DNA of 35,595 nucleotides, from contig JBNGIO010006255.1 in NCBI GenBank assembly GCA_049999805.1, positions 185,701 through 221,295 of the forward strand, written 5' to 3'. The notes beneath the pieces are model-generated. The model was not told the DNA's origin. It ran no database searches and worked only from the letters and a program-made list of their open reading frames with translations. Both the position numbers and the translations under genes were made by a program. Positions 4,985 through 29,785 of the stretch are shown one piece after another. How positions within the stretch are numbered: position 1 is the first letter of the stretch; every line of letters begins with the position of its first letter. Origin of the DNA: Folioceros fuciformis (lineage: Eukaryota).

Positions 4985-5493
4985 GGTGCACCGAATGCTG
5001 TGCGAGCGAACGCCGGTAGGCTGGAAAGCTGAGATCCGCCGAAGAGAAAGCCCTGATCGACGCGCTCGATTCTCTCTCTCTCCCTCGAGATAAATAGTGT
5101 GCGGAAAAAGAACTTGAAAAAAAAGTCTCCCTTCCGCGGCTTCCACTCCTGCAACAGTGCATTGCATTCGATGATAAGAGATCTCTTTTTCCAAATGACA
5201 GGATAATGGAAAACCGCCTCGAGTTCACATATGTGAAGTGCACTCGCTCGCTTCCCCAACAGATTCCCACGACTTCATCCTGGTGCCGGTGGCACCGGAA
5301 TGCTCGATATTGGCCAAGCATCTTCCCGTGTTTTCTGGCGCTGCCTTGTCGCTTGCTGCTGGAATGGACGCCTGGATGAGCGGAAGGTCAATTCGCTGGG
5401 TGAGTGGAGGAGTAGGAGGAGGAACACAGACTGCTGTTTTGCTCCACTGCCCATTCTGAATGCAGCTGGGCGAGCTGGTTTGAGAGCTGAAGC

Positions 5494-7481: not shown

Positions 7482-7558
7482 CGTCTTCGGCACCTCATAA
7501 CCCACATTGGGGAATGTATGTAGACATTTCTTTGTATATTCATGGGTGACTACAGGAG

Positions 7559-10164: not shown

Positions 10165-11200
10165 TTTGGCGGAGACCAGATAAGGACTTGCACACGAATT
10201 GTTCTGGACCTGTCGGATTGGTCCACGTTTGCCTGAAGAATGAGCCAGAAGAGAATCCGTTACCACCGAAGATCTGAACCTTGCGATGCAATGTGAGCTG
10301 AACCGGAAAAGTTACCTCCCGAATTTAGGCCATTCTCTTCGTCCGAGTACGGGCCCCGACGTGCGAAATGCATGCCAGGATAAATTGGCCTTGCAAGATA
10401 GCAAGCACCAGCTTGCGGCAACAGGCTCGGCTGACGATTGCGCGCTCCTCCAGCACTCTAAGCGCAGAGTCATGCTTTCCCTTTGACAAGAAAGACCAAA
10501 CTTTGTGCCGTGAAGCAGTAATCATGCCTTCCTCCTTCCTTGGAGAAGAACGTTCGAGTGGACCAATAATTCTCGGCGTGGGAATTTTCGAGCGTGGAAA
10601 GATTGATTCCTTGGCCCGTGACGTGACTGGCTGGAGCAACTGCTGTGCAAGTTTTACACAAGTGAGCGCACCGCATAGAAGATTGACTGCTATCGAGAGA
10701 TATTTTATCAACAAGTTCAACATCCAACCATCCGCAACAATTGTTCGAGAGCACTGAATTCAGTGCAATCTCTACGTGGCCCAATCCTGCTCACATTTTC
10801 TACATGCAGATTCCAACGAATGGTTGATTTAACTCAAACCAAGTGCCCCCTCAGAAGCTTTTCGTCCCCAGCACTCGGCAGTCCCGACCAACTAAGATAC
10901 AAAGAACGCTGCACCAAGAGCACAAAGAGAAGGAAGAGAGGGGTGTGCTTGGGTCTATACAAGGTTCAACATCTGCAAAGCATTTTGCAGCTTTTGCATC
11001 TGTTGGACTTACCACACTGATTTGATCCTAGAGTAATGGTGATGACTGTCGCCGCCCCACCTCAAGTGCCATCCTCAACCACGGACAACCTCACGACAAG
11101 ATGCATAAAGCGCAAACCAACTGAGCCAATGTGTGCCACTGGCGCTTCTTCACAATCTGAAAGTAGATTCCTAACCACTAGACAGCTTGAGTTCATCCTG

Positions 11201-12355
11201 TTAGAAATAGATCTGCCTACACTGCACTTGTGTCGTCTCCAGTGGGCAATAAGGGCACTTGAACGTTCTAGAATTGCCCTTGGCAAGCTTCTGGATGGAC
11301 TGCTTGCAGAGGACATGGCCACAAGGCATAAGCATGGGAGGGTTTTCAGCTGTGCTCTGCTCCCTAGACACTGGGCAAGCAAATATCGAATGAAACTGAA
11401 ATTCCTTGTCAAGCTCTATTTCTACTGGAAGCTGCTTCATCGCTAGCCACTCATGCTTCTTCTTTGCCATGACTGAGGCCAGCTTGAGAAGCGTGGGCAA
11501 AGCCTGAGAGCCTGCAGTTATGACCACGTGAAGGGGGCTCTCGTATGCCTGCCCTAGGAGACTACAGCACTCCCTGGTGAACTCCAGGGCCACAGCATCC
11601 CAATGAGCCGCAGCAAGCAAGTCCGAATAAGGCGAGGATTCAAGCCTGCCGGCAAACAGCAGGCAACCCATGAGCCTCTGTATGTCTAACATGTGCTGCG
11701 AGGCGAATAGTTCAAAGCAGCTCCGGCCATACTTGAGGGCCGCTGCACGTCCACTAGTGTGGAGCACATGCACGAACTGCAGCTGGTGCAGCTTAAACTC
11801 CAACGACGATCCTTTCTTGTGCAAATCCTCTGTGTGCGCCCTAGCCCACCCAAGAGCTGCCTCCAAATTCCTGTTCTTCATCTGTTCCAGAACCTGATAC
11901 ATCTCATAGAAAGGTGCTTTAAGAGCCAAGGCATCGTGTTGCTGCGTTTCCTGGACAAAGCGGTCCCCAAGATCAAACAGACCCTGCCTGTAGAAGTGGA
12001 GAGCCACTATCTTGTTGATGACATTGCTGTCAAAATCAATTTCCCTGTAAGCTTTGGCGATGTCCAGATTGAACACCTTGTCAAGCACCTTCCCATACTT
12101 GCTGACAGCCAGATTCACCTCTTTCTGCGAAGCCGCAAGCTGGTTGGCAGGTCCCATTTCCGTAAGTCTGGCCTGAAGCTCAACCAGGTAAGGCCTGCAA
12201 TCTGTCGCCTGATTTTCCACCGTCTCCAGAAGCTGCTTGGCTGTTTGCTCAATCTCCTGAATCATCCTGTCTATGACATCCTGAGTCTTGTTATTCGACA
12301 GCTTTTGCTTCTTCGAAACCCGCTCAAATGCATCACGGATGGAAGATAAATCCAT
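11201..12355 (-). CDS. RMND5: RMND5/RMD5/GID2 homolog, RING subunit of the CTLH (GID) E3 ligase complex; intronless CDS, 384 aa
   Basis: LisH (INKIVALHFYRQGLFDLGDRFVQE), CTLH (ALGWA...LEFKLHQLQF), CRA and Gid-type RING (FHSIFACPVSREQSTAENPPMLMPCGHVLC...FKCPYCP...QIYF*). Confidence 0.96.
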   Translation of the reverse strand: MDLSSIRDAFERVSKKQKLSNNKTQDVIDRMIQEIEQTAKQLLETVENQATDCRPYLVELQARLTEMGPANQLAASQKEVNLAVSKYGKVLDKVFNLDIAKAYREIDFDSNVINKIVALHFYRQGLFDLGDRFVQETQQHDALALKAPFYEMYQVLEQMKNRNLEAALGWARAHTEDLHKKGSSLEFKLHQLQFVHVLHTSGRAAALKYGRSCFELFASQHMLDIQRLMGCLLFAGRLESSPYSDLLAAAHWDAVALEFTRECCSLLGQAYESPLHVVITAGSQALPTLLKLASVMAKKKHEWLAMKQLPVEIELDKEFQFHSIFACPVSREQSTAENPPMLMPCGHVLCKQSIQKLAKGNSRTFKCPYCPLETTQVQCRQIYF

Positions 12356-13928
12356 GCCACCCCACGTGCCTGCACCTGGTCACCCCAAACCTGCCCAAGA
12401 AGGAGGCCCAATTGGCCTGAGACAGTTTATGCTTCCTTCACGCCCGCTCCCATGCATCAGCAGCGGAAGATGCACCCATCCTACCTCAAAACCAGCCCGA
12501 CACTGAAATTCAGTTTGTCTGAGACTGGTGAGTGCCTTTTCATGCAACAATTCAGCCATGCCCTGTGGATACCTTCCTGCTTCTACCCTCCAGCAGTGAT
12601 CCCACCCAGTTGCACGCATCCACGCCCTTCAAACAGGTCGTCCTCGCAGACCATTCCGTACGTCTGAGCCTGAGCCTCGAAACAAAAAAGATCAGGATCT
12701 CAACAGGCGACACTAGAGGCCTCCCAGGCACATACCCACAACACCACTGCTAAGATTCAGCCGACACCACCCTCTACGCCCCATCAATCCCAAGCAGTTA
12801 CACAGTAGCCTCTCCAAACCCTGAATTCATCTGTGAACAAAGCAAACGATAACACAAGCCAGCACAGCCAATGGACATGACCAACACCACAAAATCTCCG
12901 CTATACCTCAGCAAGAACTGCATCACACAACCCAGCAGGGTCCCCTAGCAAGCAACAGGGAAGCTTCGTCTCACCAGGCCCTCCACAGTGACATGCGCCA
13001 GCCACTGCTACCCAGCCGCCTACCCTTCCTCCCCAATCCAGCCCCGAGTGCAGCTGTACGCCCGCTGGAGGATTCCAGGCTAAGGCTGGTATCCTCAGCT
13101 TTGACGCCACAAATTCATGCACGCTTCCATGGGCGTGGACCTCGACTAGGGTTAAAAAGAGCCATGTGAAGATGGCCTGTATGTAACCAGATTCCAACCA
13201 AGCACTTCGGCCGCACATCTAGTCAAGCTCATTAATCTTGCCGCCACTTGGATTCTTCAGGATTTCTCGGGCGCAATTATCGAATTATGTAATGCAATCA
13301 ATAGCGACATCATATTTTGAAATCTTGCGACGAGTCTTCTCGCCTCCCCAAAATTTGCTAATCGCTGCGAATTCGCTCGCGACTCAAAGCCAGTTAGCGT
13401 TCCGCTCGCCCCCTTTCGCAAGCACAATCGCACTGATGCTCACAGATTTCACCACACGCTACATTTGCTCCATGACGATTTCACGAGCCATAGAAATTGC
13501 TGCTGTTCTTCCGGTATCCTGCGCACATGGATCCTCAAAGAGCTATGAACTTGATCTGCAACAGCCTCAGAAGGAAATCATCACCGGATCGACAGCTGCC
13601 TGCAGCCAGAAGATCGTGATGGCAACCGCATGTGAAGGCACGATCTGCGGTTACCGCATTCAAGGTCTGGCTGTCAAATTCGATCGAGAGTAGGCGAAGG
13701 CGTTAGTGAGACCAGCTGCCGTTCGCACCACGGCTGCGATTGCCAGCGACCACGAGTGAAGGAGGAGGAGGTGGCCGTAGAACGGTTTCGATTATCTTCA
13801 GTTTCTACAGAGAACCATGACATCGGGAGCGTCAATTCCTTTTTCTCACAGCCAGAGCATTTGCAACACGTTGTCCACAAGGATGCTCAGACGGATGAAG
13901 GCAATGCATCGTCTTTGGACACAGTGAC

Positions 13929-16900
13929 TCACGTATGTAGTATTCTGTAACCAGACCTGCGACATGAGGTATCTTCCTCCACTCCTATCACACGTTGTAC
14001 ATTGAGAGCATTACGCGCCTTCGTCAGCTCCGAAGTTAGAACTTCTAGCAACTCATACAACAAAGTTTGGAGTTCATGCCTGGTATCTCTCACCAGAAAA
14101 GTATGAATCTCTTGATCGTGCTCGATCCAGGTCTTGCCAGGCTCCTTCCTTGCACCTGCTCGTTGTCTCAAGTCCTCTATCTCCTTCGCAGATTCCCACA
14201 TGTCGGCATCGGCATATATAGTTGTCATCAGAGAATACGCAGCAGCTTGTTCAGCCTTGGACTCTACTGCACAATTGAAGGCCCGCCTTCCCAGTGCCAC
14301 GTTCCCGTGTGTTCGGCAAGCGGCAAGCAAACACAACCATATTTTTGACGAAGGCTGCATCGGCATTTCCAGAATCAAACATTCTGCTCTGTCGAAGATT
14401 CCTGCCCGAGCAAAAAGGTCCACCATACAGACATAATGCTCCAGATCTGGGTAAATGGCATGATCTTTGGTCATGCTCTCAAAATAAAACTGTCCTTCCT
14501 CCACCATGCCAGCATGACTGCAAGAGCTCAGGAGTGCCATAAATGTTAGTCTATCTGGTTTCATGCCTGAACGGCACGTATCTTCATATATTTGAACACT
14601 CTTCACGAAGTCTCCTTGGCGAGCATACCCAGCCAGTAGGGCAGTCCATGACACCACGTTGGGCTGGACTACTGAGTTGAACACAAGTTGAGCGTCCGCC
14701 ATACTTCCACATCTTCCGTATGCATGGATCAGACTATTTCCCACTGACAGACTGTCTTGTAGTCTGTTGTCTCTTATAATCCGATGAACCTGCCGGCACT
14801 TATCCAAAGCTCCAGTACTGCAGCATGCTTCCAGCGCGGAGAGCGTTGTTGCTTCGTTTGGTTCCACGCCTTCTGCTTGCATTTGTTCGTAAACCTGCAA
14901 GGCCTTTTCTCCTTGTTCCTGGCGAGCATACGCTGCAATCATCGCGTTCCACAAAGCAACATCTGGGTGGACAATTCCATCAAAGACACGTTTCGCGTCC
15001 GCTATACTTCCACACTGTGCATACATACTGACCAAAGCACTGGACACGGACAAATCTGAATCAAAACCCAAGAGACAGGCCTGGGCATGAATTTCCTTCC
15101 CGTTCCGAAGAGCCTCCATTTTCACCTTGCTCCCAGGAACGGATGACCCTTCAACGGTTCCGGCAAGGATGCAACATGCGTGAAGTGCACCAATCAAAGT
15201 CCATGCATCGGCCGTGAACCCCTCGTGGAGCATTCGGCGAAAGATTTGCAAGCACTTTTCGCCCTGTTGTTGCTCAGCATATGCTGCGATCATAGCATTC
15301 CATGACACAGCATCACGGTGAGATGATTTGTCAAACATGTCCTGTGCATCTCTGAGGGATCCACACTTTGCGTACATACTGACCAGAGAGCTGGCAACAA
15401 ACTTGTTGGTGTCGAGCCCCCTTTCGGCAGCTTGTGCATGTAGTTGCTTGCCCGTCCGCAGAGACTCAACTTTGACTGCCTGCCCCTGCAAAAACGTACT
15501 TCCCTCATTTTCAGAAAGAGAACTGCATGCTTGGAGGGCACCGACGAAGGTCCGAGCATCTGGTTCCACGCCTGTCATGATCATTTGCCTGTAAGTCAGC
15601 CATGCTTCTTCTCCTTGGCCCCGATGAGTGTAAGCTGCAATCATCGAATTCCATGACACCAAGTCTCTGTACGACAACATGGCAAAAACATGTTCCGCGT
15701 CCTTCATGCAGCCACACTTGGCATAAACACGAAACAGAGTGCTTGTGACCAACACATCAGAGCCATAACCTAGCCGTGCCACTTGCATGTGTACATCCTT
15801 TCCCTTCTGCAAGGACGCCACTTTGACAACACCGCCACAAACAAGCGCTCCGTCCTCCTCTTCTGCGAGGATGCCAATCGCTTGAAGCACACTTACCAAA
15901 GTCCAAGAATTTGGCAAGATACCTTCTTCCTGCATCTTGGAGTACATCTGCAGAGCCTTTACTACTTGACGATGATGCACATACGCTGTGATCATCGCAG
16001 TCCACGAAACAACATTCCTCTGAGACAGGTTACCAAACACCTGTTCCGCAAGGGCAATACTCCCACACTTGGCATACACACTCACCAAGGTGTTGCATAC
16101 GGACACGTATGAATCCGAACCCCATAGCACAGCTTCAGCAAATATTCCCCTCCCTTTCTCCAAGGCCCCTGACTTCACACACTGGCCATCCACAACAACA
16201 CCTTCCTCCTGCTCTGCAAGCGCACCACACGCTTGAAGCGCACTGACGAATGTCTGAGCACTCAACCTGACACCCTCCGCCTTCATGGCTGCATATAACT
16301 GCAACGTCCTCTCTCCTTCACCCTGCTGAGCATACGCCGCAAGCATCACATTCCATGACACAACATCGCGATGAGTTAGTCTGTCAAACACCTGCTGTGC
16401 ATCAACGAGGCTCCCACATTTGGCATACATGCTCATCACAGTGCTAGCAACATAAGCGTGCGACCCAAAACCACGTCTCACAGCATCGGCATGGATCCGC
16501 TTACCCTCTTTCAGGTCCCTCAGCCTGCTGCAAACCTTGAGTACGCTAACAAACGTATACTCATTCGGCTCCATACCTTCCTGCTGCATCTGCTCATAAC
16601 ATAGCAGAGCCTCCCGAAACCTCCCGGCCTCGCTATACCCTGAAATGACGGCCGTCCACGAGAACACCGTCCTCCACACCAACCTTCGAAACAGACAGAG
16701 CCCATCAGCAAAGCCCCCACACTTGATGAGCGTGGCAACCACAAGGTCACCCAGAAACCTGTCCGACTCCAGCCCATCCTCAGCCAGACGAGCATGCACC
16801 AACTTAGCCTGCTCGAAATCCTTCTTCCTCCTGCAATCCTGCAACAGACTCGCATACAGGCGCACAGAAGGCACACTTCCACCGCCGCCCACTCTCTCCT

Positions 16901-17072
16901 TCTCAAAAACTCCCCCCACCTTCGCAGCCTGCGTCTCAGTCTTCGAGCCTTCCTTCAAGTCCCAACACATCGCAGCATTCACGGAGGAGTGGTGCCAAAC
17001 AATTTTCTCCACACCTCCTCCTCCTGTCATCCATGGCAAGCCTCTGAGGCCGAGCAAATCAAAATTCACCAT
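13929..17072 (-). CDS. PLS-class pentatricopeptide repeat protein, E+ subgroup, with four 51-aa long-L motifs (candidate organellar RNA-editing specificity factor)
   Basis: Intronless 1047-aa ORF. P/L/S triplets (YAKCGS...VF; VVSWN.MI..Y), P2-L2-S2 (ALLSSCSHAG; HYVCMVDLFARAG), E1, E2 and a PG-box KEPGKTWIE...HTF. It ends without HxE/CxxC. Confidence 0.95.
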   Translation of the reverse strand: MVNFDLLGLRGLPWMTGGGGVEKIVWHHSSVNAAMCWDLKEGSKTETQAAKVGGVFEKERVGGGGSVPSVRLYASLLQDCRRKKDFEQAKLVHARLAEDGLESDRFLGDLVVATLIKCGGFADGLCLFRRLVWRTVFSWTAVISGYSEAGRFREALLCYEQMQQEGMEPNEYTFVSVLKVCSRLRDLKEGKRIHADAVRRGFGSHAYVASTVMSMYAKCGSLVDAQQVFDRLTHRDVVSWNVMLAAYAQQGEGERTLQLYAAMKAEGVRLSAQTFVSALQACGALAEQEEGVVVDGQCVKSGALEKGRGIFAEAVLWGSDSYVSVCNTLVSVYAKCGSIALAEQVFGNLSQRNVVSWTAMITAYVHHRQVVKALQMYSKMQEEGILPNSWTLVSVLQAIGILAEEEDGALVCGGVVKVASLQKGKDVHMQVARLGYGSDVLVTSTLFRVYAKCGCMKDAEHVFAMLSYRDLVSWNSMIAAYTHRGQGEEAWLTYRQMIMTGVEPDARTFVGALQACSSLSENEGSTFLQGQAVKVESLRTGKQLHAQAAERGLDTNKFVASSLVSMYAKCGSLRDAQDMFDKSSHRDAVSWNAMIAAYAEQQQGEKCLQIFRRMLHEGFTADAWTLIGALHACCILAGTVEGSSVPGSKVKMEALRNGKEIHAQACLLGFDSDLSVSSALVSMYAQCGSIADAKRVFDGIVHPDVALWNAMIAAYARQEQGEKALQVYEQMQAEGVEPNEATTLSALEACCSTGALDKCRQVHRIIRDNRLQDSLSVGNSLIHAYGRCGSMADAQLVFNSVVQPNVVSWTALLAGYARQGDFVKSVQIYEDTCRSGMKPDRLTFMALLSSCSHAGMVEEGQFYFESMTKDHAIYPDLEHYVCMVDLFARAGIFDRAECLILEMPMQPSSKIWLCLLAACRTHGNVALGRRAFNCAVESKAEQAAAYSLMTTIYADADMWESAKEIEDLRQRAGARKEPGKTWIEHDQEIHTFLVRDTRHELQTLLYELLEVLTSELTKARNALNVQRVIGVEEDTSCRRSGYRILHT

Positions 17073-17261
17073 GAATCTCGACCAAAGACATCAATCCAGC
17101 TTTCGTCCTACAGCGGTTCGATTCAGTCCAGGCGCGGCAAGCAGCTAGTTCATTTTGGCGGACTGGAATCCCGGGTCCGAAGCGGGTCCCATTGGCTAGG
17201 CGGGTATGCGGAGGGAAACGCTTTCGGTCCGGGAGCCGAGGATGCTAATAATTGCAAATAT

Positions 17262-20200
17262 TCATCGAGTTGGGACAACCTGAGCCAATCTGGCCTGACG
17301 GACAACAACTACAGTCCGGACGTTATGCAATCCGTCCGTCCAGACGATGGAGCCGAAGGAGTAGTCGCGGGAAGGAGGAGCCCCGGTTGCGTTCGCCGAG
17401 AGAACAAGGGTGAAGGAGATCCGGTGGCCGAGGCTGGTGAAAGGCAGCACCGAGGGCGTCACGGCCGCGGCGTAGCCCGTTGGGGGCGTGATGACGACGG
17501 TGTAATTCACCACGGGGGCAGGCCCCACGTTGGTCAGTGTTCTCACCACCGACTCGGATTGGATCAGCCCGTTCACTGTGATGGTCGGGTAGTTGAGGTC
17601 GTGGATTCTGATGGGCACCACAGGGCACGGCAATCCCGTCACCGTCACGATTGCTGTCTCGTTGTATGGAGCTGCCGTGCACAGGAAGGCCACGAATTCT
17701 GCAGGACTGATGTCGTATACCAGTCCGGGGTCCGCGGCATTCACGGGGTTCAGCATTCCTGCTCCGTGGGCGAATGGGGTGCTCATGTTGCCGAAGACGT
17801 CGGTGATGAAGTTGTCGCCGGCGTTGTCGCGCACCGTGGCTGCATGGACGGAGGCGGGAAGAAGGTGAGGGCGTGGAATGAAGAAAGGGGGTTGGCTGAT
17901 GACTAGGTCCTAGCCGGCGAGTGGTGGTGGAGTTGATGGTACCTGTGGTCATGAGAGCTGATTTGATGGCAGCAGGGCTCCAATCTCTGTGCAAAGCCTT
18001 CACCAGAGCGGCCACACCTGAGACGTGTGGAGTTGCCATGGAGGTTCCAGACATGATGTTGAACTCGAGCATCCTGTTGTCGATTCCGTCCTCAGCAGGA
18101 GAGCTGATCGGAGACCATGCTGCTAGGATTTCCACCCCCGGGGCTGTTAAGTCAGGCTGCGTGCAAAGTTGAGGGTTGGTAGGATGTGAGGCAACTTCAG
18201 CATGGAATAAGCAAGCTGGAGAGGCAGGGAGTGAGGTTGTGGGTACCTTGAGGATGTCTGGTTCTGATGGATTCGGTCCTTGTGACGAGAAGTAACCCAT
18301 GACTGGCGCTGGAATGCTTCCCAAGATGGTTAGAGTTTCCAGAGTCGCAGTAGGAGCTCTGTGCATTGGAAGCATCTGTTAGGATCATTCCCATATCCAA
18401 GGAGTTCAACGAAGATAAAGAACCAGCGAAGTGGTGGTGCTGACAAGGTGGCCTGAATGTAGGACAGAACGGCCTCGCCTTGTAAGAAAGGAATTTGAAT
18501 GGCCGGTAGTTCATATGTGAAGGAGCCGAAGTAGTCGTTGGGCAGAATGACGCCTGCCGCTCCAGCAAGTACCGGGCCAGTCAGATTTGCAGAGGTGAAG
18601 TCATCCACGATACATAACAAAATTGCTCCAGAAACCTTGGCTGGATCCAGGGTGCCAGGAATCCCACAACTTCCTCTGCAATACCCAGCACCCGGTCACA
18701 TGAGATGAAATGGATGGCGTTCAATCTGGCAAAGGGTGAAAGAAGGGAACCGGTGGACATGGGCAAGGAAATCTGGCTACGAGCTTACGGAGCTGCGGGA
18801 TTGATAGGAGTGCTTTCGAACCCAGAGCTGCCAGCATACACAAGGGGGTACAGTTTGTCCGTAAGGTTGACCATGTTTGTTCCATAGCCCTAGTGAAAAC
18901 ATGACATAATATGTCAGTTGCAAACCTTGGAGACGAGCCGTTTATGAGGTGGAGGAGGACGAGTGGGTGAGTGAGTGAGTGCTCACCTTGTAGACATCGC
19001 CGCTACCCAGTGTGATGGTGGCTTGGAACCGACGGTCAATGGTGTTGGCACCAACCGTGGTTATCCAAGGAGCCAAATTGACGACACTGGAAGGATCGGG
19101 TCCTGCGTTTCCAGCAGCAGCGGCCACGAAAATGCCTTTCTGAGTGGCGTGCAACGTGCCGATGGCGATGGGATCTTTGAAGTAACTGGGTTGTTTCGAG
19201 CCAGCAAGTGAAAGGGAGATGATGTCCACGCCATCCAAGATGGCATCGTCAAATGCGGCGAGAATGTCAGCATCCGAGCAGCCGGCCTCCCAGCCATTGA
19301 TCCAGCAGATCTGTAGACCACGTGATGGAGAGTGATCAACAGCTCAAAACAATGCTATACAACTGGTGAGCACGACGACCACATTCACCTTGTAGATGGC
19401 AAGGTGGGCCAGAGGGGCCCCGCCTCTAGCGTCTCCGACAGCCAGACCGCCGAGGCCCGCCCCCTGCACCAGCGACCCTGCTGCTGTGGAGGAAACATGG
19501 CTGCCATGGCCTTGCTCGTCTCGAGCCGACTTGATGGATCCTCTGATGTCCAAATGCTCCGCTAAGAAGCCATTGTAGTAGTATCGCGCCCCTATCAATT
19601 TGCTGGCCACCAGCGATGTTCATCGTCAGCGGGCAAAACAAGACATGGCTTCATTCACAACATTGGAATGGAAAGAATGGAGCGATTGCTTTGACGGACA
19701 GGTCCGCTCACTTGTTACATGTAGAGACATTGAACTGCTCTCCCTCGATGCAAGCTCCTTTCCACCGCGGGGGCGGAGGTGGCATTCCCTCGGCTGAGAA
19801 ACTCCTTGCCTCGGGCCACACCCCTGCACAGGTCCGAATCTCACGCATTTCTTCAAATGGAACACAAGGGATCGGGATCCAGCGAATGTCACGCATCCTC
19901 TTCAAATGTGGCACAGGGCCACGCAATCCAACCTGACGTCATGCAATGCACGGTGACCTTCTCTTACCGCTGTCAAACATTCCTATGATGACGCCGCTGC
20001 CAAAATTGGAGGCCTGCCAGGTACCAGTAGGGTTGACAGGGTCTAATCCCAGAAAGCTGTAAGATCTGGTGGTGGCGAGCTTCCACAAATTGCTACGGAA
20101 AACAGACAACACCCCGGGCACCCCTGTGGAAGGTAGAGAACACAAATTCCGATCACTCAGCACAAACAAACCTGCACATCATCCCTTCCACACAATCAAT

Positions 20201-20703
20201 TCGGCGAGGACGAAAGCACCTAACACGGCGTCCGCTTCGTCCTCCGACAACGAGGCTGCGAAGCCATTGAATCCCTTACTGTAACTGTAGTGCACTCTCT
20301 TTCCGCTCTCTTCATGGCTCCTGCGAATTCAAAACCTGCCGATCAGATTCACCCCAATCCAGACAGACCACGCAGCAGCAGCCAACCGATCCAGACTGCT
20401 TACTCCCCGAGAGCACTGCTCAGCGTGTGCAGGTGCAAATCCCTGGCCTCGTGGCTTTGCAAATCCTCAACCTTGTCGCCCATATACACAATATGCACCT
20501 GTACATTAACCCACCACCCAATGCGGACAAGCATTGGTTTCTCTCAGCCCCTGCACATCGAGGGCCCCCTGCTCCCGACCAACGCGCATGCCGGCAACAA
20601 CATGATTGTGGCTTACCTTCCTCCTGACCTGAACCGCACCGCCATTGCCAACCAGCAGGAGGAGCAAGAGCAAGCCCGTGAGGAATGTGCTTGAGCTCCA
20701 CAT
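17262..20703 (-). CDS. Secreted subtilisin-like serine protease (S8A plant subtilase), about 12 exons
   Basis: Signal peptide [19 protein letters not shown] (ATG 20703). I9 prodomain ([30 protein letters not shown]). Catalytic Asp ([13 protein letters not shown]), His ([15 protein letters not shown]), oxyanion Asn (AAAGNAGP) and Ser ([10 protein letters not shown]). PA domain and a C-terminal Fn3-like region (DLNYPTI; RTLTNVG; FGSIVW). Exons join via GT-AG with no disruption noticed. Confidence 0.94.
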
Positions 20704-21200
20704 CCTGCACCGCGTGCTGCTGCATTCCACACGGGGCTCAACTCCGCAGCACGCCGACCGCTTCGTCCAAAGTCGCTCACTAGGCCCTGGATTCTTCCCG
20801 GGACCTTCTACCCTGCCCCGGCCCAAATTGCGTGCTAACCTGTGCTATTGTCTATCGGACACGAGACTCAAGCGTGTTCAGTCTTCAGCGCGCTTTGTCG
20901 TAAGGATTGACTCACTTTAGGCGCGAACGACGACAACGTCTCGCAGATTCGCCTCTGTCTCCGGGAAAGCGAATCATGCCTGAGCGGAATGACCGCAAGC
21001 GTCGTTCGGGTTCCGAGCCGGTGCCGCATCTCCTCAGCCTAGCGGCAAGCTACACCGCAGTGACGGAGTCGGTTCATCAGAAACTGGACAACACGTGCCG
21101 CTCAACACACAACGGGGTGTGTGTGTGTGGGCAACGCATCTGCACACAGTCGGACGAACCTTGCTTCTACGACCTGGACCGGGCCGGCCCTTTCTGTTCC

Positions 21201-21438
21201 CAGGAGCCAACGACTTTGGCAGAACCTGCGAGGAAAATCTGTCGTGCATGCATCTTCGGACCAGCATCAGCCTGCAAGCAGAATGTGGATTTCAAACCCA
21301 AGCCCATTCATTTCAACTCCAAGGAGCCAACTACTTTTGCAGAACCTGCAAGAACAAATCTGTCATGCATACAGCTTCGGACTAGCATCAGCCTGCAAGC
21401 GGAATGTGGATTTCAGACCTAGGCCCAGGGCTTTCAAC
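21201..21438. repeat. Imperfect tandem duplication, two copies of about 120 bp
   Basis: AGGAGCCAAC.ACTTT.GCAGAACCTGC.AG...AGCATCAGCCTGCAAGC.GAATGTGGATTTCA.ACC.A.GCCCA starts at about 21201 and again at about 21321. Confidence 0.9.
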
Positions 21439-22446
21439 AGTACACAGATGCGGCTCCAACACCTAAGCATGGCGGATACGTCTACAAACTACGGCAACTG
21501 AACGATGTGAGATCGCATGGTCTTGAAGAAACAAACAAGTTGGTGAAACATCCGGCAGTATCTTGCTCAGTCCAGAGCTCGGGACTTGCCAGCAACACTT
21601 GTGGAGCTTCTGAGGTGCGGTGCAAGTGATATGACGCGGTCATTTGATATTTCCAGATATTGACAAGGATGAGGTATTGGCAGGCTTTGCGTAATGACAA
21701 CCCAGCAACGTGATGACCGGCCGATTTTCACATTTCGCTGCCAACATTCCGTGCCATTTGCCTCAAAGTATGGCATACCAAAGAGGATACAGGGCACGTA
21801 CTGTTATATTTTTTTTTCAGGACGCGCTTTTTTCTTGTGGATGCGTAGGTTTGTTATAACAGTACTGTACATAGCTCCTGAAATATTGTACATAGCTCCA
21901 TTTCAGGAGTATCTCAAGGTATATATGGAATAAGGCTATACCAAGGTAACGATGGCTTTAGGACCTTCCCAAAGTGGTAATTGCTCACTATGATCATTTA
22001 ATTTTTTTCAAGGGTATTTGAAGGTATATACCCTCAATGGCTATGACAATTGCAAGGGTGCTGCCAAACCAAGGATAGCGGCCTCAGGATTGATTGGGAT
22101 TCATTGATTATGAATGCCTTTGCTTTCTTGCCTCCCTTTCTATTGTTGCATGAAGTGCTTAGGCTTGGCCCCATGTGTGCCTTTGCTTTCTTGCCTCCCT
22201 GTCCAATATTGTCCAAGGAAAGCTGTCATTGTCCATGCAAAGCCGACCTAAATTCCCTCCATATTATATTGAGAAGCCTACTGGAATGGAAAGTGCGCTA
22301 TGATGTATTATATTCATGGTCTCCTTCCGTCGAGACAACGAGAGGGAATAGACTTAAAAAAATTGAGCTGTGGGTAAACAATCTTTGTATCGCCCGTACA
22401 CATCAGCCGCCAGTACATGACACCTGCCATCGATCCGCTCACAAGT

Positions 22447-25176
22447 TCAAATGCGATCCTGACAGGAACAAATTCCGGCGGCGAAATGGTGGACCCGTCG
22501 TGAATCTCTAACAACAATTGCTCGGTCTTCCAGTCGTGACAGGATCTTGGTACTGTTGTGACAGTCGTTGCACATTCGAAGATTTTTGGTGACTAGCAAT
22601 GGAGTCCCATGTGGGGTGTTAAGGAGGCCAAACGCCAGGGCCAGCTTCTCGGCGTGTCCACACAAGGCGTCTTCCTTCTCCTGCTCAGGCATGGCCTTGA
22701 GGACCAGCTCTGTTTGTGGGACATGACCCCCTTCCTCCTTCAGCCTCAAGTTCATCCTGCTCAGCCTGGGTGAGATGTCAGACCTGTCGTCCCCCACAGT
22801 GAACTCGTGCACTTTGTTGTTCAGCTCGATGCATACCTTGGCAGGAGTCTTCCAGGCGCAAGCACTCGTTCTCAGGTTCTCGATTGTGTCTACTTCATCC
22901 CACATGCCTGCCTGTGCATAAGTGCTGCCTAGAAGGACATAAGGTGTAGCGTTGTCAGGTTCCAGTTGGACAATGCGGTCGAAACATCGTCTTCCTCGCT
23001 GCACGTCACCATGACTCTTGCAGGCAGTGAGGAGGGAAGTCCAGGCCACTGCGTACTGTTCGAACGGCATTGTGAGCAGAAAGCTCTCGGCCTCGTCCAG
23101 CCGGCCTGCTCGACCCAGGAGATCCACCATGCACGTAAAGTGGTAGTCGCTGGGGATGATGCCGTAACCCTGCACCATCATGTTGAAGTAATGCTGGCCC
23201 TCACGCACCATGCCTGACTGACTGCAAGCTGCGAGAAGAGAAATAAAGGTGGCTTCGTCTGGCTCAACGCCCTGCTGGCGCATCTCGTTGAAACACTCGA
23301 TGGCCTGCTCGCCGTCACAGTGTTCGGCATAGCCGTTCAGCAGAGCACCCCAGGCCACCACATCCCTGGTGGGCAGACTCTCGAAGACCCTGCGGGCATC
23401 ACCCAAGCTCCCGCACTTGGCGTACATGTCCACCAAGCAGTTGCCGACTGATGCATCTGAGACCAATCCCCTTGCTTCTATTTGTGCATGAAGGTGTCTT
23501 CCCTTGTACAGAGCTCCAATGCTGCCACAAGCCCGCAGAAGACACACCAAGGTGACAGCATCCGCTAGAGCCATGGCCCCATGCTGCATACTTCCATATA
23601 GGGCCAGGGCTTCTTGTCCGAAGCCATGCTGAGCATATCCGGAGATCATTGAAGTCCATGTCACCACATCTCTGTTTGGCAGCCTGTCAAACACGGCGCG
23701 AGCTTCCCCTAAGCTCCCGCATTTTGCATACATGTCCACCAGGCAGTTGCCCACAACAACATCACCTTCGAGTCCACTTTGCTTCATTTGTTCATGCAGC
23801 TCCTTCCCCTCGTTCAGAGCTCCGATGCAAGCACAAGCCCTCAAGAGGCACACGAATGTGACACAGTTAGCTGCAGTCATGCCCTCCCGTTTCATACTGC
23901 TATACACAGCAAGAGCCTCTCGACCCATTCCATGCTGCGCATATCCTGCAATCATAGCAGTCCATGACACCACATCTCTTTTCCGTAATCCGTCAAACAC
24001 TCTGCGAGCATCCACCAAGCTCCCACATTTGGAGTACATGTCAATAAGGCAGTTCCCGAGAGCTAAATCACCTTCCAGCCCTCGTTCTTGAATATCAGAA
24101 TGGATTCGCCTTCCCTGCTCCAGAGCACCAATGCAGGCACATGCCTGCAGAAGGCACAAGAAGGTAACACTAGTGGCCACGGTATTACCCTGCTCTTGCA
24201 AACTCTCATACAGAGCCAAGGCCTGGGCACCCAGCCCATGCTGCGTGTAGCCCGCAATCATGGCATTCCACACCACGGCACTCCTTGTCGGCAGCCTGTC
24301 AAACACTCTGCGAGCGTCTTCCAAGCTCCCGCATTTCGAATACATGTTCACAAGGCTGCTGCCAAGAAAGAAGTTAACACTCACATTGCTGGCCACAATA
24401 TCGGCATGCACCTCCTTCCCAGACACTACATCCCCTGCTGCAGCACATGCCTTCAGGACAGCCACGAACACATGGTTATCCGCACTCACACCTGACACTC
24501 GCATCCGTCGATACAGGTCAATAGCCTGCCCAGGCTCTCCAAGTCGGGCATGGGCCAGTATCATGGCACCCCACACATACCCATCTGGCTCAGCCACCTT
24601 GGCGAACGCCTCCGCTGCATCTTCCATTCTCCCATGCGCAGCATACATGCCAATCAAATGATTGCCCACAAACGCGTCCGACCCGTACCCACTTCTCAGC
24701 GCAAGGGTATGTACTCTCCTGCCAAGACGCAAATCCTTCTGTTCCCTGCACCTCCTGAGAAAACGACCAAAGAGAGAGCGATGCACATAAGTTCCTCGAT
24801 GCACCAGGACGTCTAAACCATCCACAGCCTGCTGCAGCTCCCCCTCCTCACAAACTTTGCTCAAGCTCTCACCCATGGAATCCCCTTCGTACTTACCATC
24901 CTTCTCACCACGGGTCCCGGGAGACCAGGCAGGCCTATCCCAGTCAGACAGGCGCAGAGTCCCGTTAGGGACCTCGTGTCGGAAATCAAGATGGCGGGGA
25001 CCTGTACGTCCCTTGTCCAACCACAGTCGCTCACTGGGCTTCACTTCTGGTGCAACGTAGACTGCTCCAGCACAACAAGCTGGGCGGGAGCTTCGATGGC
25101 CTGAACAACCCAGCAGCCAAGCTGGGCCGCTGTTGGACCCACATCCCGCATTCGTCACAAACGTTCCTGGCATCAT
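22447..25176 (-). CDS. PLS-class PPR protein with a DYW:KP (DRH-like) deaminase domain; candidate U-to-C RNA editing factor, about 909 aa from the first ATG
   Basis: Intronless ORF with regular L-S-P triplets and P2-L2-S2-E1-E2, then WKTPAKVCIE (KPA-type box instead of PG-box), HEFTVGD, LCGHAEKLALAFGL, KNLRMCNDCH and HHF..GICSCQDRI*. The supplied ORF starts at a TTG (25293); the first ATG is at 25176. Confidence 0.93.
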   Translation of the reverse strand: MMPGTFVTNAGCGSNSGPAWLLGCSGHRSSRPACCAGAVYVAPEVKPSERLWLDKGRTGPRHLDFRHEVPNGTLRLSDWDRPAWSPGTRGEKDGKYEGDSMGESLSKVCEEGELQQAVDGLDVLVHRGTYVHRSLFGRFLRRCREQKDLRLGRRVHTLALRSGYGSDAFVGNHLIGMYAAHGRMEDAAEAFAKVAEPDGYVWGAMILAHARLGEPGQAIDLYRRMRVSGVSADNHVFVAVLKACAAAGDVVSGKEVHADIVASNVSVNFFLGSSLVNMYSKCGSLEDARRVFDRLPTRSAVVWNAMIAGYTQHGLGAQALALYESLQEQGNTVATSVTFLCLLQACACIGALEQGRRIHSDIQERGLEGDLALGNCLIDMYSKCGSLVDARRVFDGLRKRDVVSWTAMIAGYAQHGMGREALAVYSSMKREGMTAANCVTFVCLLRACACIGALNEGKELHEQMKQSGLEGDVVVGNCLVDMYAKCGSLGEARAVFDRLPNRDVVTWTSMISGYAQHGFGQEALALYGSMQHGAMALADAVTLVCLLRACGSIGALYKGRHLHAQIEARGLVSDASVGNCLVDMYAKCGSLGDARRVFESLPTRDVVAWGALLNGYAEHCDGEQAIECFNEMRQQGVEPDEATFISLLAACSQSGMVREGQHYFNMMVQGYGIIPSDYHFTCMVDLLGRAGRLDEAESFLLTMPFEQYAVAWTSLLTACKSHGDVQRGRRCFDRIVQLEPDNATPYVLLGSTYAQAGMWDEVDTIENLRTSACAWKTPAKVCIELNNKVHEFTVGDDRSDISPRLSRMNLRLKEEGGHVPQTELVLKAMPEQEKEDALCGHAEKLALAFGLLNTPHGTPLLVTKNLRMCNDCHNSTKILSRLEDRAIVVRDSRRVHHFAAGICSCQDRI

Positions 25177-26067
25177 GCAGAACGCTGTGTGCGGTGACTG
25201 AACTCCGGCTCTCAAGCTGTCAGACCCCAACAAGCCCGATTCGGTGGTCCTGGTCCATTTCGTCCACGATTCCCACCGCCAACCCGTATGCAAAGGCGCA
25301 GAAGAAGTCGTATTCTCTAGGACGGCAAGCTCGAAACCGCAAATTCTGTTCCGTCTAGCCCATACCTGTTGCTGTTTGCATCATCTTTTGCATTTGCGCT
25401 TAGCTCTTGACCCCCCTCTGCAAGAGACCACCGTTGCCAACTCTATGGCCAATGGGAATTAGACAAACGTATTTTGGTTTTCGATCCCCAAGACCAACAG
25501 ATCAAACTTCAGGGGATTCGATCATCGCTTAGGCTTGCGCTTTGTTGTTTCGCTTGAAGCGCCTGTTTCGCGCACTACCCTTGGATGATGTTTTGCCACT
25601 GAAAAAACGACTGGCTAGATTGGACTCTGCTAGCTGGAGGCGTCTTTAGTTTGGTACAAGCTGAGAATTCCTCGTCCCGTGGCCTCCCCAGTTTCGATGA
25701 CGCTATCTTCCTGATCAGCCTTGCATGCCACGTGAACCCCTTTCATATCTATCTGGACATCTGCAAAACAACCTTGGCGAAACACGAGAACCAACTCCTG
25801 ACGGGCCACAAAAAGAGAAATGGAAAAGCGCAGGGAAGCGCAACAATCAAATTGATTCACCCCTGGTGATCTTGCGGGAAAGGGAATTCCTCACGACCCC
25901 TGGCATCGTCAAGTTCCTCCTAAATTTGAGGAAGGAGCGCAGACTGGCACCACCCAATGTTCTCGACGGCCATCAAGAACTAGACATGTTGGGTGCCAGC
26001 TCGTCAATCCTGATTTCAAATACGTACAATTAGAAGCTCAATTCAGCTTTTATCGATGCGGAAGGAT

Positions 26068-29000
26068 TCAGTTTGACCATGTCGTGTCAGGGGCGCAGCT
26101 CATTTCAGAAGCATGATCGAGCTTTGCGTTTAGTCTTTGAAGGAGTGATTTTATGTCTGCAATCTGTTCGTGGGTTTTGCCACCCGCCACAAACTTGTGC
26201 ACTTTCGCTGCGTGCTCAATCCAGCTCTGCCCAGGCTTCTTCCATGCCCCTGCTTGCTGTCTCAAGTCCTCTATAGTGCTAGCATCCTCCCACATATGAC
26301 CTTGAGCGTAAATGCTGGACATCAGCAAGTAGGCTGAGGAGTGCCGCGGATCCAATCTTACTGCATGCTCAAAGGCACTTTCTGCAATTGCTACATTATT
26401 ATACTTCCGGCAGGCAGCAAGTAGAGACAACCACATTGGCAGCGCAGGTTCCTCAGGCATTTTCAGAAGCAAGTCCTGCACCTGGAGTAAATGGCCTGCC
26501 CGGCCCAGGAGGTCAACCAGGCATGTATAGTGTTGCATTGTAGGAGTGATGCTGTGAGCGTGGACCATCGACTCGAACAACTGGATTCCTTTGTCCACCA
26601 CCCCTGCATGGCTGCATGCAGCAAGCACACATAGAAATGTGACACCATCGGGCTTCACACCTGCCACCTTCAGCTCCTCAAAGCACTTCAAGCTCATGGT
26701 GTAGTCCCCCTGTCTGGCGTAACATGCAATTAAGGCATTCCACGCTCCTACATTGTGCTCGGTAGCTGTGTTGAACACATGCTGTGCTTCCTCCATGCTG
26801 CTGCACATGCCGTATGCATGCACAAGCGACGTCGTCAGCTTTGGGCAGCACTCAACCCCACTTTCAATGATGTCTTCATGGAGCTGCCTGCACATTTTCA
26901 GGTCTCCCACATTGCTCGATGCTTTGAGTAAGAACATAAACGTGGCCTGATCTGGACTGATGCCAGCAGCTCTCATGGCGCTGTAAACTTGCAGTGCCTT
27001 GTCCTGGTCTTCTTGCTGAGCATAACCTGAGATTATAATCGTCCACATGACCACATCTCGGTCAGGCAGTGCATCAAAAACTTGCTGGGCCTGTAACATG
27101 TCTCCACATTTGGCATACATGTCAACCAGAGTGGTAGCCACGATCAGATCTGTTTGACAGCCGCTCCTCACAACCTCGGCATGGACTTCTTTCCCCAACT
27201 GTAACCACTCTACCTTCAATAGCTGTCCATCCTTAGGTGTTTCAGCTTCCCCAGCTGCCAGGCTCCCACAGGCTTTGAGAACGGCTGCAAAGATCCAATT
27301 GTCTGGCCTAACGCCTGCCTTCTGCATTTCAGCATAAAGTAACCAAGCTTGGTCAAACTGTTCATGCTCAGAATAACCAGAAATCATTGCACCCCAGGAC
27401 ACAAGATCAACCTGAGCTAAAGTGTCAAAGACACGCCTAGCATCTACCAAGCTCCCACATTTTGCATACATGGCAACCAGAGTGTTGCCAAGGAACATAT
27501 CTGATCCAAAGCCTCCCTTGACCAGTTCTGCGTGAATGTGCTTACCCTTTTGCACGGCCTCAACATGGAGTTGCTGGATCTTGCTATCTTCCTCCTCTTT
27601 CATGGCAGCCAGCCTGTAACAGGCTTTTAGAGCACTGGCAAACGTCCAACTGTCCGGTCTCACACCTTTCACATGTAGCTGAGTGAAGAGCTCCAAGGCC
27701 GCTTCAGCTTGTTCTTGCTGGACGTAGCCTGCGATCATTGCATTCCACACTACAACATTCTTATCGGACAACAGATCAAACACAAGTTTTGCACTTGCAA
27801 GGTCTCCACCATTTGCGTAGACATGGACCAAAGCACTGCACACATATCGGTCTGCCTCATAACCCCTTCTAACCATTTCAGCATGTAACTTTTTACCCTT
27901 CCAAAGGGTCCACACTCTAACCGCCTGTCCGTCAAGCAGTGCCTCCTCTTCTGAGGCTGCAAGGTTCCCACATGCCTTGAGGAGGCTGGCAAAGGTTCGA
28001 TTGGTGGGCCTGACACCCTCCTCTTGCATTTCCACATACAGTTCTAACGCCTTATCACTTTCGTCCTGCTGCGCATAACCTCCGATTAGTGCATTCCACG
28101 AAACAGAATCACGTTTGACCAATTTATCAAACACAGCCCTTGCATCTACCATGCTCCCACACCTAGCATACATGTGCACCAAAGCGTTGCCGATAAATGC
28201 ATCCGCTTCCAGACCCCTTCTCACGACTTCGGCATGCACATCCTTTCCCTTCTTCAGATACTGCTCTTTTACTGGATGCCCCTGTACAAGAGTGTCATCT
28301 TCCTTCGCTGCCAGGCTACTATAGGCTCGGAGGATACAAGGGTACGTCCGGTGGGTTGGACTCACCCCTTCGATTTGCATTTGTGTGTACAATTGCAGAG
28401 CCTTATCCCCCTGCTCATGCTGGGAATATCCGGCGATTAGTGCATTCCACAACGCCACATCGTGATGGGGCAGAGCATCAAAGACGCGCTGGGCGTCCTT
28501 CATGCTGCTACATTTTGCATACATGCCCACCAAACTCGCCCCAACAAACAAATCTGATCCGTACCCCCTCTCAATAACGTCAGCATGGATCCGCTTGCCC
28601 TCTTCCAGGTCCCCAATGCTGCCACAAGCTTTGAGTAAGCTCACAAGAGTGTTCCTGTCTGGCGGCACACCTGCCTTTTGCATCTCACAATAGACTTTCA
28701 AAGCCTGTCGGCACTGGCCAGTATTTGCGTACCCCGAGACGAGGGCAGCCCAGGATATGACACTGGGGATAGCCAATTGCTGAAATGCCTTGAGGGCGTC
28801 CGTTAATCCGCCACACTTAACATACATGTCAACAACCCTGTTCCCCAAATAGTCATCCTCCATCACAAGGCTTCCCAGGAGCCCATGCAAACGCCTTGCC
28901 TCAGCCAGAGCTCTCCTCTTGCTGCAACCTTGCAAGAGAAACCTGTACGTGTCCACGGGAGCAGCTACTCCTTGCTGGTGCATAAGGGTCATGAGGTCCA

Positions 29001-29127
29001 GAGCCTCCACCATTTTCGCTTCCGTACACAACCTCTTCACTTGCTCCGATGCCTTGGAATCCACATCCACGAATGTCGTCAAGAAATCCCGCTGCATTTC
29101 TGGCTTCCTTATCTGCAGAGCGCACAT
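26068..29127 (-). CDS. PLS-class PPR protein, E+ subgroup, with four 51-aa long-L motifs
   Basis: Intronless ORF (supplied start is TTG 29145, first ATG 29127). PLS triplets, P2-L2-S2, E1, E2 and a PG-box WKKPGQSWIE...HKFVAGG. It stops before the zinc-binding HxE/CxxC motifs. Confidence 0.95.
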   Translation of the reverse strand: MCALQIRKPEMQRDFLTTFVDVDSKASEQVKRLCTEAKMVEALDLMTLMHQQGVAAPVDTYRFLLQGCSKRRALAEARRLHGLLGSLVMEDDYLGNRVVDMYVKCGGLTDALKAFQQLAIPSVISWAALVSGYANTGQCRQALKVYCEMQKAGVPPDRNTLVSLLKACGSIGDLEEGKRIHADVIERGYGSDLFVGASLVGMYAKCSSMKDAQRVFDALPHHDVALWNALIAGYSQHEQGDKALQLYTQMQIEGVSPTHRTYPCILRAYSSLAAKEDDTLVQGHPVKEQYLKKGKDVHAEVVRRGLEADAFIGNALVHMYARCGSMVDARAVFDKLVKRDSVSWNALIGGYAQQDESDKALELYVEMQEEGVRPTNRTFASLLKACGNLAASEEEALLDGQAVRVWTLWKGKKLHAEMVRRGYEADRYVCSALVHVYANGGDLASAKLVFDLLSDKNVVVWNAMIAGYVQQEQAEAALELFTQLHVKGVRPDSWTFASALKACYRLAAMKEEEDSKIQQLHVEAVQKGKHIHAELVKGGFGSDMFLGNTLVAMYAKCGSLVDARRVFDTLAQVDLVSWGAMISGYSEHEQFDQAWLLYAEMQKAGVRPDNWIFAAVLKACGSLAAGEAETPKDGQLLKVEWLQLGKEVHAEVVRSGCQTDLIVATTLVDMYAKCGDMLQAQQVFDALPDRDVVMWTIIISGYAQQEDQDKALQVYSAMRAAGISPDQATFMFLLKASSNVGDLKMCRQLHEDIIESGVECCPKLTTSLVHAYGMCSSMEEAQHVFNTATEHNVGAWNALIACYARQGDYTMSLKCFEELKVAGVKPDGVTFLCVLAACSHAGVVDKGIQLFESMVHAHSITPTMQHYTCLVDLLGRAGHLLQVQDLLLKMPEEPALPMWLSLLAACRKYNNVAIAESAFEHAVRLDPRHSSAYLLMSSIYAQGHMWEDASTIEDLRQQAGAWKKPGQSWIEHAAKVHKFVAGGKTHEQIADIKSLLQRLNAKLDHASEMSCAPDTTWSN

Positions 29128-29785
29128 TCCAGCGCCTGCGAACAATACTGTAATCTCAAGACAACTTCACCCCCTACAAAACCAAGATACAAATTCACAG
29201 CAGCAAGCTCAACCCCACCTGACATCTCCACGGCTCCCGAGGAATTCCAGCCACGTCCCAGTCTCAGGCCCCTCATTTCCCACTGATGCAGGCCATCCTT
29301 TCCGCAGGCATTCAGCCCGGTGCGTGACCAACAACGTGCAAACGGGATTCAGCTGGTAAACGCCCGCCCGACTTACCTCCCCCAACCAAGTCATCCACCC
29401 AAAGCAGTAAGCCCGAGAGAGAGCCCGCCATAGCTAACTTAACGTAGCTAAACGCGACGCGCCAGGACGTCACCCCATGTCCCATGCAAATCCATGCTCC
29501 AAGAATAAATGACCGCCGTAATCTTTACTGCCTATCACGAATTGTCTATAATTTGGCTCCTGGCATATGTAGCCTTGGTTAGGCGAAAACAATCGCAACC
29601 TGGCGACAGCATTTCGAAAGTTTTATCAGCAATTCCTACTTCACATAGGACCAAGAAGTAGGCCGATCCTGGTCGGTCCCACCACATTTCTGTCCTACAT
29701 AGGCTCAGCCCCGAAATTCGTCCCATCACACTTTGTCCCAAAGCCCGTATTCGCAATCAACGAGAGAGCCTCACACAGCAACACG

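Follow-up and report, generated by a model that had tools for sequence, protein, structure and literature searches.

The subject of this analysis is one gene within a stretch of 35,595 nucleotides from Folioceros fuciformis (GenBank assembly GCA_049999805.1, contig JBNGIO010006255.1, positions 185,701 to 221,295), the whole of which is called the window. On the minus strand, translation of positions 22447-25176 yields a single open reading frame (ORF) of 909 codons that runs without internal stop codon or frameshift to a TGA at 22447-22449, and its product is a pentatricopeptide repeat (PPR) protein whose C-terminus is formed by a deaminase-like domain of the DYW group. A prediction made earlier for positions 22447-22860, which correspond to the final 137 codons of this ORF, held that the domain is of the DYW:KP type and that the gene encodes an intact native factor for U-to-C RNA editing. 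We find a complete KP-type gene, whose unusual last residue is a small variation and not the sign of a new kind of enzyme.

The 909-residue protein matches the Pfam families for PPR (E 4.1e-82), E_motif (E 7.9e-09) and DYW_deaminase (E 1e-34). The last of these matches, to PF14432, scores 118.7 bits against a cut-off of 24 and covers profile positions 1-91 of 93, well outside what chance would give. When motif boundaries are placed by hand at lengths of 35/35/31 and so on, the repeats together with E1 and E2 fill residues 98-776 exactly, with canonical lengths throughout. The order is a degenerate first P motif, an L-S pair, four P-L-S triplets, P2-L2-S2, E1 and E2, and the protein thus has the architecture of PPR-DYW:KP factors, in which a PLS-class PPR protein carries, after E1 and E2, a C-terminal DYW-type domain. 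The fifth and last residues of the S and P motifs (ND, GD, SS, NT, ND, TN, ND, TD, ND, GD and TY) yield only a low-information motif, with U at four S motifs plus A and G. The 97 residues ahead of the array are possibly an organelle targeting peptide. Coordinates are collected in Table 1.

Table 1. Features of the PPR-DYW:KP gene and of its RNA-like contigs, in window coordinates.
Feature	Position	Strand	Basis
PPR-DYW:KP ORF (protein P0001), 909 codons plus TGA	22447..25176	-	ORF translation, Pfam
N-terminal 97 residues without PPR motif	24886..25176	-	Motif parsing; array begins at residue 98
PPR array, residues 98-708	23053..24885	-	Hand parsing plus Pfam PPR families
E-motif region	22849..23052	-	Pfam E_motif PF20431 at residues 722-778, motif parsing
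DYW:KP-type deaminase-like domain, 133 residues (777-909)	22450..22848	-	Position; alignments to 9kfx, 7w86 and 7o4e; structure model
Codons H65-A66-E67: zinc ligand, KP-typical alanine, catalytic glutamate	22648..22656	-	
Codon Lys88	22585..22587	-	Position; lysine reported as essential for U-to-C in designer KP proteins (excerpt of PMC11845758)
Codons C93-x-x-C96, catalytic zinc ligands	22561..22572	-	
Codons of the terminal D-R-I, stop next at 22447-22449	22450..22458	-	
GT..AG segment of 142 nucleotides within the ORF, about residues 94-141, first PPR-like motif	24755..24896	-	X3 versus X1 contigs
Stretch matched without mismatch by an RNA-like X3 contig (764 letters): whole DYW domain plus 78 nucleotides past the stop	22369..23132	-	

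Comparators for the domain came from three sources: a word-indexed search with the last 170 residues (49 matches among 283 candidates), the identical search among shorter proteins (13 matches), and a HMMER search run exhaustively over 1.84 billion cluster representatives, from which the best 150 of 2,775 matches at E <= 0.001 were taken. Among 197 proteins, 21 were dropped and the 176 with a complete domain entered a tree computed from 136 columns with IQ-TREE in quick mode, with branch supports from the Shimodaira-Hasegawa approximate likelihood ratio test (SH-aLRT); row counts below refer to this alignment of 176 rows. A branch with support of 92, which rises to 97 in a subsample of 56 rows, splits a KP side of 64 rows from a PG side of 112 rows. 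On the PG side the HxE motif reads HSE in 104 rows, and nearly all domains have 136-137 residues and end in DYW or DFW, while all 53 rows with HAE or HCE belong to the KP side.

The Folioceros domain lies on the KP side, inside a clade of 24 rows with support of 97. The other 23 members end in DRH (10 rows) or GRP (four rows), then in DRP, DRY, DSP, VDH, DHH, DAH and others. Within the clade our domain branches at the base without resolution, outside both the DRH cluster and the GRP clade (the latter with support of 97), and its best comparator, with 75% identity over the domain, ends in DRH. Hornwort KP proteins are reported to fall into DRH and GRP subgroups, with tracheophyte KP domains clustering apart (PMC9478123); this paper and the others cited by PMC number are drawn on in excerpt, and what we take from them holds for those excerpts. 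A GRP-type domain was considered and rejected, as D131 is present and the GRP rows form a separate clade. The domain clusters with the DRH-type domains and would work as they do, yet its terminal triplet is D-R-I and not D-R-H, and by name it is a variant beside the DRH subgroup.

Residue characters point in the same direction as the tree. Numbered after PMC11845758, where position 1 is the K of 'KP', the domain carries T1, P2, A3, K4, C6, T17, E47, G64, H65, A66, E67, K68, K88, C93, C96, V113, S116, V119, D131, R132 and I133. The motifs named in the original prediction are all present in the translation: KTPAKVCIE occupies the position of the PG box, whose glycine is absent, HAEK corresponds to protein residues H841, A842, E843 and K844, the cysteines of CNDC are C869 and C872, and the terminus reads CSCQDRI. 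P2, A3, K4 and C6 are majority residues of the KP side or of the clade, and together they make up the N-terminal box that PMC11845758 and PMC11332814 describe for KP domains, here replacing the PG box. The shortened segment that had been noticed after HEFTVGD is confirmed by HMMER alignments as a gap of four residues directly after this motif relative to solved chains of the DYW:PG type, among them 9kfx_A (E 1.6e-49) and 7o4e_A; 7w86_A was aligned as well. The corresponding xHP-segment columns, which follow domain position 22, are filled in 1 of the 24 clade rows and 32 of the 64 KP-side rows versus all 112 on the PG side. KP domains are reported to have 132 and 133 residues (PMC11845758) and to have lost the xHP segment (PMC9478123); our domain has 133 residues and lacks the segment.

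Single positions separate the two sides in a similar manner. Alanine at position 3 occurs in 21 of 24 clade rows and 47 of 64 KP-side rows versus 6 of 112 PG-side rows, and A66 in 22 of 24 and 41 of 64, where the PG side has serine in 110 of 112. Either A or C stands in the middle of HxE in 54 of the 64 KP-side rows, with which the HAE of the Folioceros domain agrees. Methionine at position 92 (24/24 in the clade, 54/64 on the KP side) faces valine in 74 of 112 PG-side rows, V119 (22/24 and 50/64) faces phenylalanine in 99, and R132 (19/24 and 20/64) faces tyrosine in 83 and phenylalanine in 25. The terminal triplet DRI also differs from the D-Y/F-W ending of the PG side, where 105 of 112 rows end in W.

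Profile hidden Markov models (HMMs) trained on half of each side gave the domain 202.0 bits for KP versus 163.8 for PG, a difference of +38.2. Among held-out rows the difference was positive for 32 of 32 on the KP side (median +39.0) and negative for 56 of 56 on the PG side (median -47.7), and when its clade was excluded from training the domain still scored 179.6 bits for KP versus 163.6 for PG. A PG-type editor is rejected on these scores and on the residue characters. The assignment to the DYW:KP type in the original prediction is therefore upheld by both phylogeny and profiles and, judged from its sequence, the domain is KP-type and nearest to domains ending in DRH or GRP.

The residues required for catalysis are complete, as had also been claimed for the zinc ligands. 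In an alignment of 44 sequences (A1), H65, E67, K88, C93, C96, H97, H120 and C129 are invariant and C127 nearly so, and the Folioceros domain keeps all of them. Across the 176 rows, E67, C93 and C96 are invariant and H65 is found in 175, so that the HxE(x)nCxxC pattern is intact; K88 is present in all 64 KP-side rows and in 110 of 112 on the PG side. The second, structural zinc of OTP86 is held by H924, H947, C954 and C956 (PMC7611903), which align to H97, H120, C127 and C129 of our domain. When the last 170 residues were modelled with AlphaFold2 from A1, the mean predicted local distance difference test score was 86.0 and the predicted template modelling (TM) score 0.74. Foldseek returned seven matches to this model at E <= 0.001, of which six are DYW structures: 9kfx_A, with E 1.4e-17 and a TM score of 0.80 relative to query length; four 7o4e/7o4f chains, with E between 3.6e-11 and 5.9e-10 and a top TM score by target length of 0.84 (7o4e_B); and 7w86. 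The remaining match is to a cytidine deaminase toxin from bacteria.

Several residues are private to this copy. Threonine at position 1 replaces the lysine of 19 of 24 clade rows, D20 and D21 stand where most clade rows have E, S116 replaces the alanine of 20 of 24, and I133 replaces H (14 rows), P (6), Y (2) or N (1) of the other 23. Among 206 comparator proteins, a collection that includes the best 150 of 2,775 matches, the DRI ending does not occur, and four have a terminal Ile. Termini on the KP side are diverse, with about 40 different triplets among 53 rows, and KP termini have been reported as variable. From this comparison the DRI ending, Thr1 and Ser116 appear as private variants of one copy in a family whose termini vary widely. 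The original prediction had placed both DRI and KTPA at positions likely to affect activity or direction. The idea has some ground for position 133, at which the change F133H shifted the balance of direction in the designer protein KP6 (PMC11845758), and does not carry over to Thr for Lys at position 1, for which no evidence was found and where 15 of 64 KP-side rows also lack Lys. Identities in the near-length search reach 68% over the last 170 residues, none of the 13 matches among shorter proteins exceeds 76%, and the top identity among the best 150 of the 2,775 cluster-representative matches is 69%. A protein atlas holds DYW and E-motif clusters at the level of Streptophyta only, with no structure entry.

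What a KP-type domain can do is known from designer proteins. KP2, KP3 and KP6 convert U to C in E. coli and human cells, and this conversion is abolished by changing HAE to HAA or CxxC to AxxA (PMC9478123). Lys88 is essential, in that its replacement removes both U-to-C editing and a protein-RNA crosslink and raises C-to-U editing (PMC11845758; PMC11713852). Papers from 2024-25 implicate this active-site lysine in the amino-group chemistry (PMC11845758; PMC11332814; PMC11713852), and the earlier statement that the amino donor is unresolved is dated in this respect. Because every residue involved is present in the Folioceros domain, we infer for it the chemistry of the designer KP proteins. 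By this analogy the protein would be targeted to an organelle, where its PLS array would read some 17 nucleotides that lie upstream of a single RNA site or of a few such sites. E1/E2 and the C-terminal motif would position the target pyrimidine in the zinc site formed by H65, C93 and C96, together with E67; the terminal Trp of DYW:PG structures sits beside the structural zinc, close to nucleotides -1 and -2 (PMC7611903). Turnover would then begin with an attack of Lys88 on C4 of uridine, giving a Schiff-base intermediate that resolves to cytidine, and the direction of editing would accordingly be U to C.

The gene is also present in contigs that behave like RNA. We compared the window with contigs from four runs, of which X1 is a DNA run, X3 carries the same organism label and comes from a different study, and X4 and X6 carry other organism labels. 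A GT..AG joint that removes 305 nucleotides (minus strand, 12668/12974) is found in X3, X4 and X6 and not in X1, and depth over the intergenic interval 19673-22340 is 0-3.5 in X3 versus about 10-14 in X1. Because of this joint and the low intergenic depth, X3 is taken as RNA. Its contigs identical to the window cover 22369-23132, and 23727-24753 joined to 24896-25562. No long contig covers 23133-23726 in X3 or X1, and this interruption is a repeat-driven assembly break that has no bearing on expression. Contigs of X6 cover 23417-24755 as well as 22546-23132, where 38 of 587 letters differ and the last codons fall outside the listed piece; this suggests a related copy in a relative.

The joint in the second X3 contig removes 142 nucleotides of the coding sequence. 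This segment starts with GT and ends with AG once the cut is moved by one base, is absent from the X3 contig and present in X1, and encodes the first PPR-like motif in frame. The spliced form leaves a 112-codon upstream ORF, followed by a 733-codon ORF whose first codon, Met177, falls within an S motif. The possibility that it is an mRNA for an alternative full-length protein was rejected, there being no in-frame upstream ATG. In the neighbouring PPR ORF at 26068-29166, a segment of 224 nucleotides (GTAAGC..ATGCAG, 27322-27545, minus strand) is missing from X3 and X6 contigs and present in X1; its removal breaks the 1032-codon frame four codons past the joint, an event of the same type. Frame-breaking intron-like segments in PPR coding sequences may thus be a regular feature of this lineage, possibly reflecting unproductive splicing.

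We consider it likely that the gene encodes an ordinary PPR editing factor of the KP family, most probably acting from U to C. KP-type PPR genes have been reported from hornworts, lycophytes and ferns, and the observations best fit a nuclear origin in a seedless land plant, most consistently a hornwort. As regards the original description of an intact native U-to-C factor, its first part agrees with the complete set of residues; the direction is drawn by analogy, the DRH-based designer KP1 was not among the active ones, and the contig of the spliced 5' part breaks the frame.

A number of observations count against this interpretation. With respect to the domain type, an approximately unbiased (AU) test on 56 random rows and 136 columns did not reject a tree in which the Folioceros domain groups with the PG side (log likelihood 24.43 lower, p 0.136), a grouping that was named only after the tree had been seen. 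The test is weak because there are only 136 columns, and it is the shared deletion and the diagnostic residues that carry the predicted KP assignment. The KP and PG sets are moreover the two sides of our own tree and not curated references, and the eponymous lysine of box position 1 is a threonine here, although the lack of this lysine in 15 KP-side rows indicates that it is conserved and not invariant. With respect to function, the excerpts of PMC11845758 (February 2025) state that no native KP protein has a demonstrated activity, and among the papers listed by our literature search there was no assay of one. Of seven designers, only KP2 and KP3 (GRP type) and KP6 (fern type) edited (PMC9478123), from which it follows that KP1 was not active, and U-to-C activity is least documented for the DR-type subgroup to which our domain belongs. 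Database searches with the last 170 residues recovered no orthologous protein, so that orthologue termini, and with them the conservation of DRI, cannot be read. With respect to expression, none of the runs is on record as RNA, and the kinds given to X3, X4 and X6 are guesses of the software, which for X3 the behaviour of the contigs favours. The sole RNA-like contig across residues 94-141 lacks the 142 nucleotides and so breaks the 909-codon frame, and the contigs give no isoform ratios from which the amount of unspliced coding mRNA could be derived. The splice joint weighs against a gene that is intact and expressed as full-length protein, but as evidence it is not strong.

One alternative concerns the direction of editing. 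The KP6 designer edits both ways in human cells, and its changes E64G, L113V and F133H move it toward C-to-U while L6C, V17T, D116A and I119V move it toward U-to-C (PMC11845758). The Folioceros domain mixes the two sets, having G64 and V113 from the first and C6, T17 and V119 from the second, so that direction is not readable from these residues. A KP-clade domain that edits C to U, or both ways, in vivo and is not a dedicated U-to-C enzyme would be compatible with G64 and V113, with the unusual Ile at the direction-shifting position 133, and with an intact zinc site and the Glu67 required for deamination. However, G64 and V113 are each found in 24 of 24 clade rows and set this domain apart in neither case, Lys88 is present, a residue reported to hold C-to-U back and to be indispensable for U-to-C, and designers of the GRP type perform U-to-C only (PMC9478123). 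We therefore regard such an activity as unlikely. A related proposal is that the Ile terminus, perhaps with Thr1 and Ser116, shifts direction (toward dual or C-to-U editing) or improves product release relative to DRH paralogues. It is worth stating because position 133 shifted the direction of KP6 and none of the 206 comparators ends in DRI, and we hold it to be very improbable; if it were true, the domain would supply a natural DRI/DRH pair for finding the determinant of pyrimidine editing direction.

It is also conceivable that little or no full-length protein is made, either because the gene is a young decaying paralogue or because its transcripts are mostly spliced unproductively. The X3 contig without the 142-nucleotide segment would fit this view, as would the private substitutions T1, S116 and I133 at otherwise conserved places and the failure to find an orthologue in protein databases. 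Yet the ORF runs through its 909 codons free of stops and frameshifts, its repeats have canonical lengths, and all invariant residues are kept. The 142 nucleotides encode a recognisable in-frame PPR motif, which is what a coding role of the unspliced form would predict, and contigs drop rare variants. The same type of frame-breaking joint in the neighbouring PPR gene, seen under two organism labels, may be a regular feature and not a mark of decay. Such a loss of product thus seems quite improbable to us. Finally, many PLS proteins act as recognition factors, and two E-type PPR genes without deaminase adjoin this one, which could suggest a protein that binds RNA while catalysis comes from another DYW protein. 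The domain is complete, lacks none of the catalytic and structural ligands and so has no need of such a donor, and we give this last explanation scarcely any credence. An ordinary KP-family editing factor, most likely working from U to C, accordingly remains our preferred account.

The flanking PPR genes lie on the same strand as frames of 1053 codons (13929-17090) and 1032 codons (26068-29166), measured from stop to stop, which brings three PPR genes into about 15 kb. Both are of the PLS type, several of their L motifs carry insertions, and both have an E motif with a remnant of the PG box (KEPGKTWIEH and KKPGQSWIEH) and no deaminase, as in the E/E+ type. They fit the E+ class reported in PMC13386178 to be enriched only in hornworts, a source that finds 1,583-2,308 PPR genes in hornwort genomes and includes DYW:KP among its catalogued subgroups. 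At 23675-24341, summed contig depth reaches 3,123 to 22,456 in all four runs versus tens elsewhere, and hundreds of contigs end or jump there. This peak marks an S-motif region common to very many paralogues and is a sign of a very large PPR family in the organisms concerned.

Elsewhere in the window, 11204-12355 (minus strand) holds a single-exon homologue of RMD5, a RING/Gid-type E3 ligase and CTLH complex subunit, with the 305-nucleotide GT..AG intron (12668/12974) seen in three RNA-like runs lying upstream of it. Its identities are 89% and 82% to the top records, 71% to a lycophyte and to liverworts, 63% to Selaginella and 62% to Physcomitrium. Frames at 17262-18378 (minus strand) with a GTSMATPH motif are presumably those of a subtilisin-like serine protease, and a fragment at 8195-8650 (minus strand) with a GNSGGPL motif we take to resemble an exon of a trypsin-like or DegP-type serine protease. 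Undetermined bases at about 1600-1700, which appear as an X run in the translation of 1314-1784, are probably an assembly gap.

To our knowledge, U-to-C editing is the only pyrimidine conversion that lacks a well-understood natural enzyme. According to the excerpts of PMC11845758 no native KP protein has been assayed, and an intact, expressed native KP gene is for this reason a usable test object. The Folioceros protein carries all residues thought to be needed, and its practical use would lie in adding one more natural form to a mutational series for position 133. It is one member of a very large family, and apart from Ile at a position that tolerates many residues, nothing in its sequence marks it as stranger or better than its paralogues.

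Compared with known systems, the domain shares with DYW:PG domains (OTP86 in 7o4e/7o4f, DYW1 in 7w86 and a synthetic PPR-DYW protein in 9kfx) the same fold (Foldseek E 1.4e-17 to 1.7e-09), two zinc sites, the catalytic Glu and the active-site Lys. Unlike them it has no PG glycine, reads HAE and not HSE, is three to four residues shorter after GD, has M92 for V and V119 for F, and lacks the terminal Tyr-Trp. In PMC9478123 and PMC11845758, U-to-C activity is demonstrated only for the KP domains of three designers, KP2 and KP3 (GRP type) and KP6 (fern type). They belong to the same family and length class as the Folioceros domain and have HAE, CxxC and Lys88 in common with it, and C6, T17 and V119 are shared with the KP6 forms that favour U-to-C. 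In contrast to the Folioceros protein, these three are consensus designs, and position 131 is Gly in the GRP types, which group in a clade apart. In being of the DR type, our domain resembles KP1, which is not among the three active designers.

The closest resemblance is to the hornwort DRH subgroup, a name that PMC9478123 credits to Gerke et al. 2020. The domain differs from this subgroup in ending with Ile and not His, in having Thr for Lys at position 1 and Ser for Ala at 116, and in branching at the base of the clade, outside the DRH cluster. With the subgroup it shares a domain of 133 residues, the K/x-P-A-K-x-C box, HAE, loss of the xHP segment, M92, V119 and D131-R132, and it lies in a clade where 10 of the 23 other rows end in DRH, including the comparator to which it is 75% identical.

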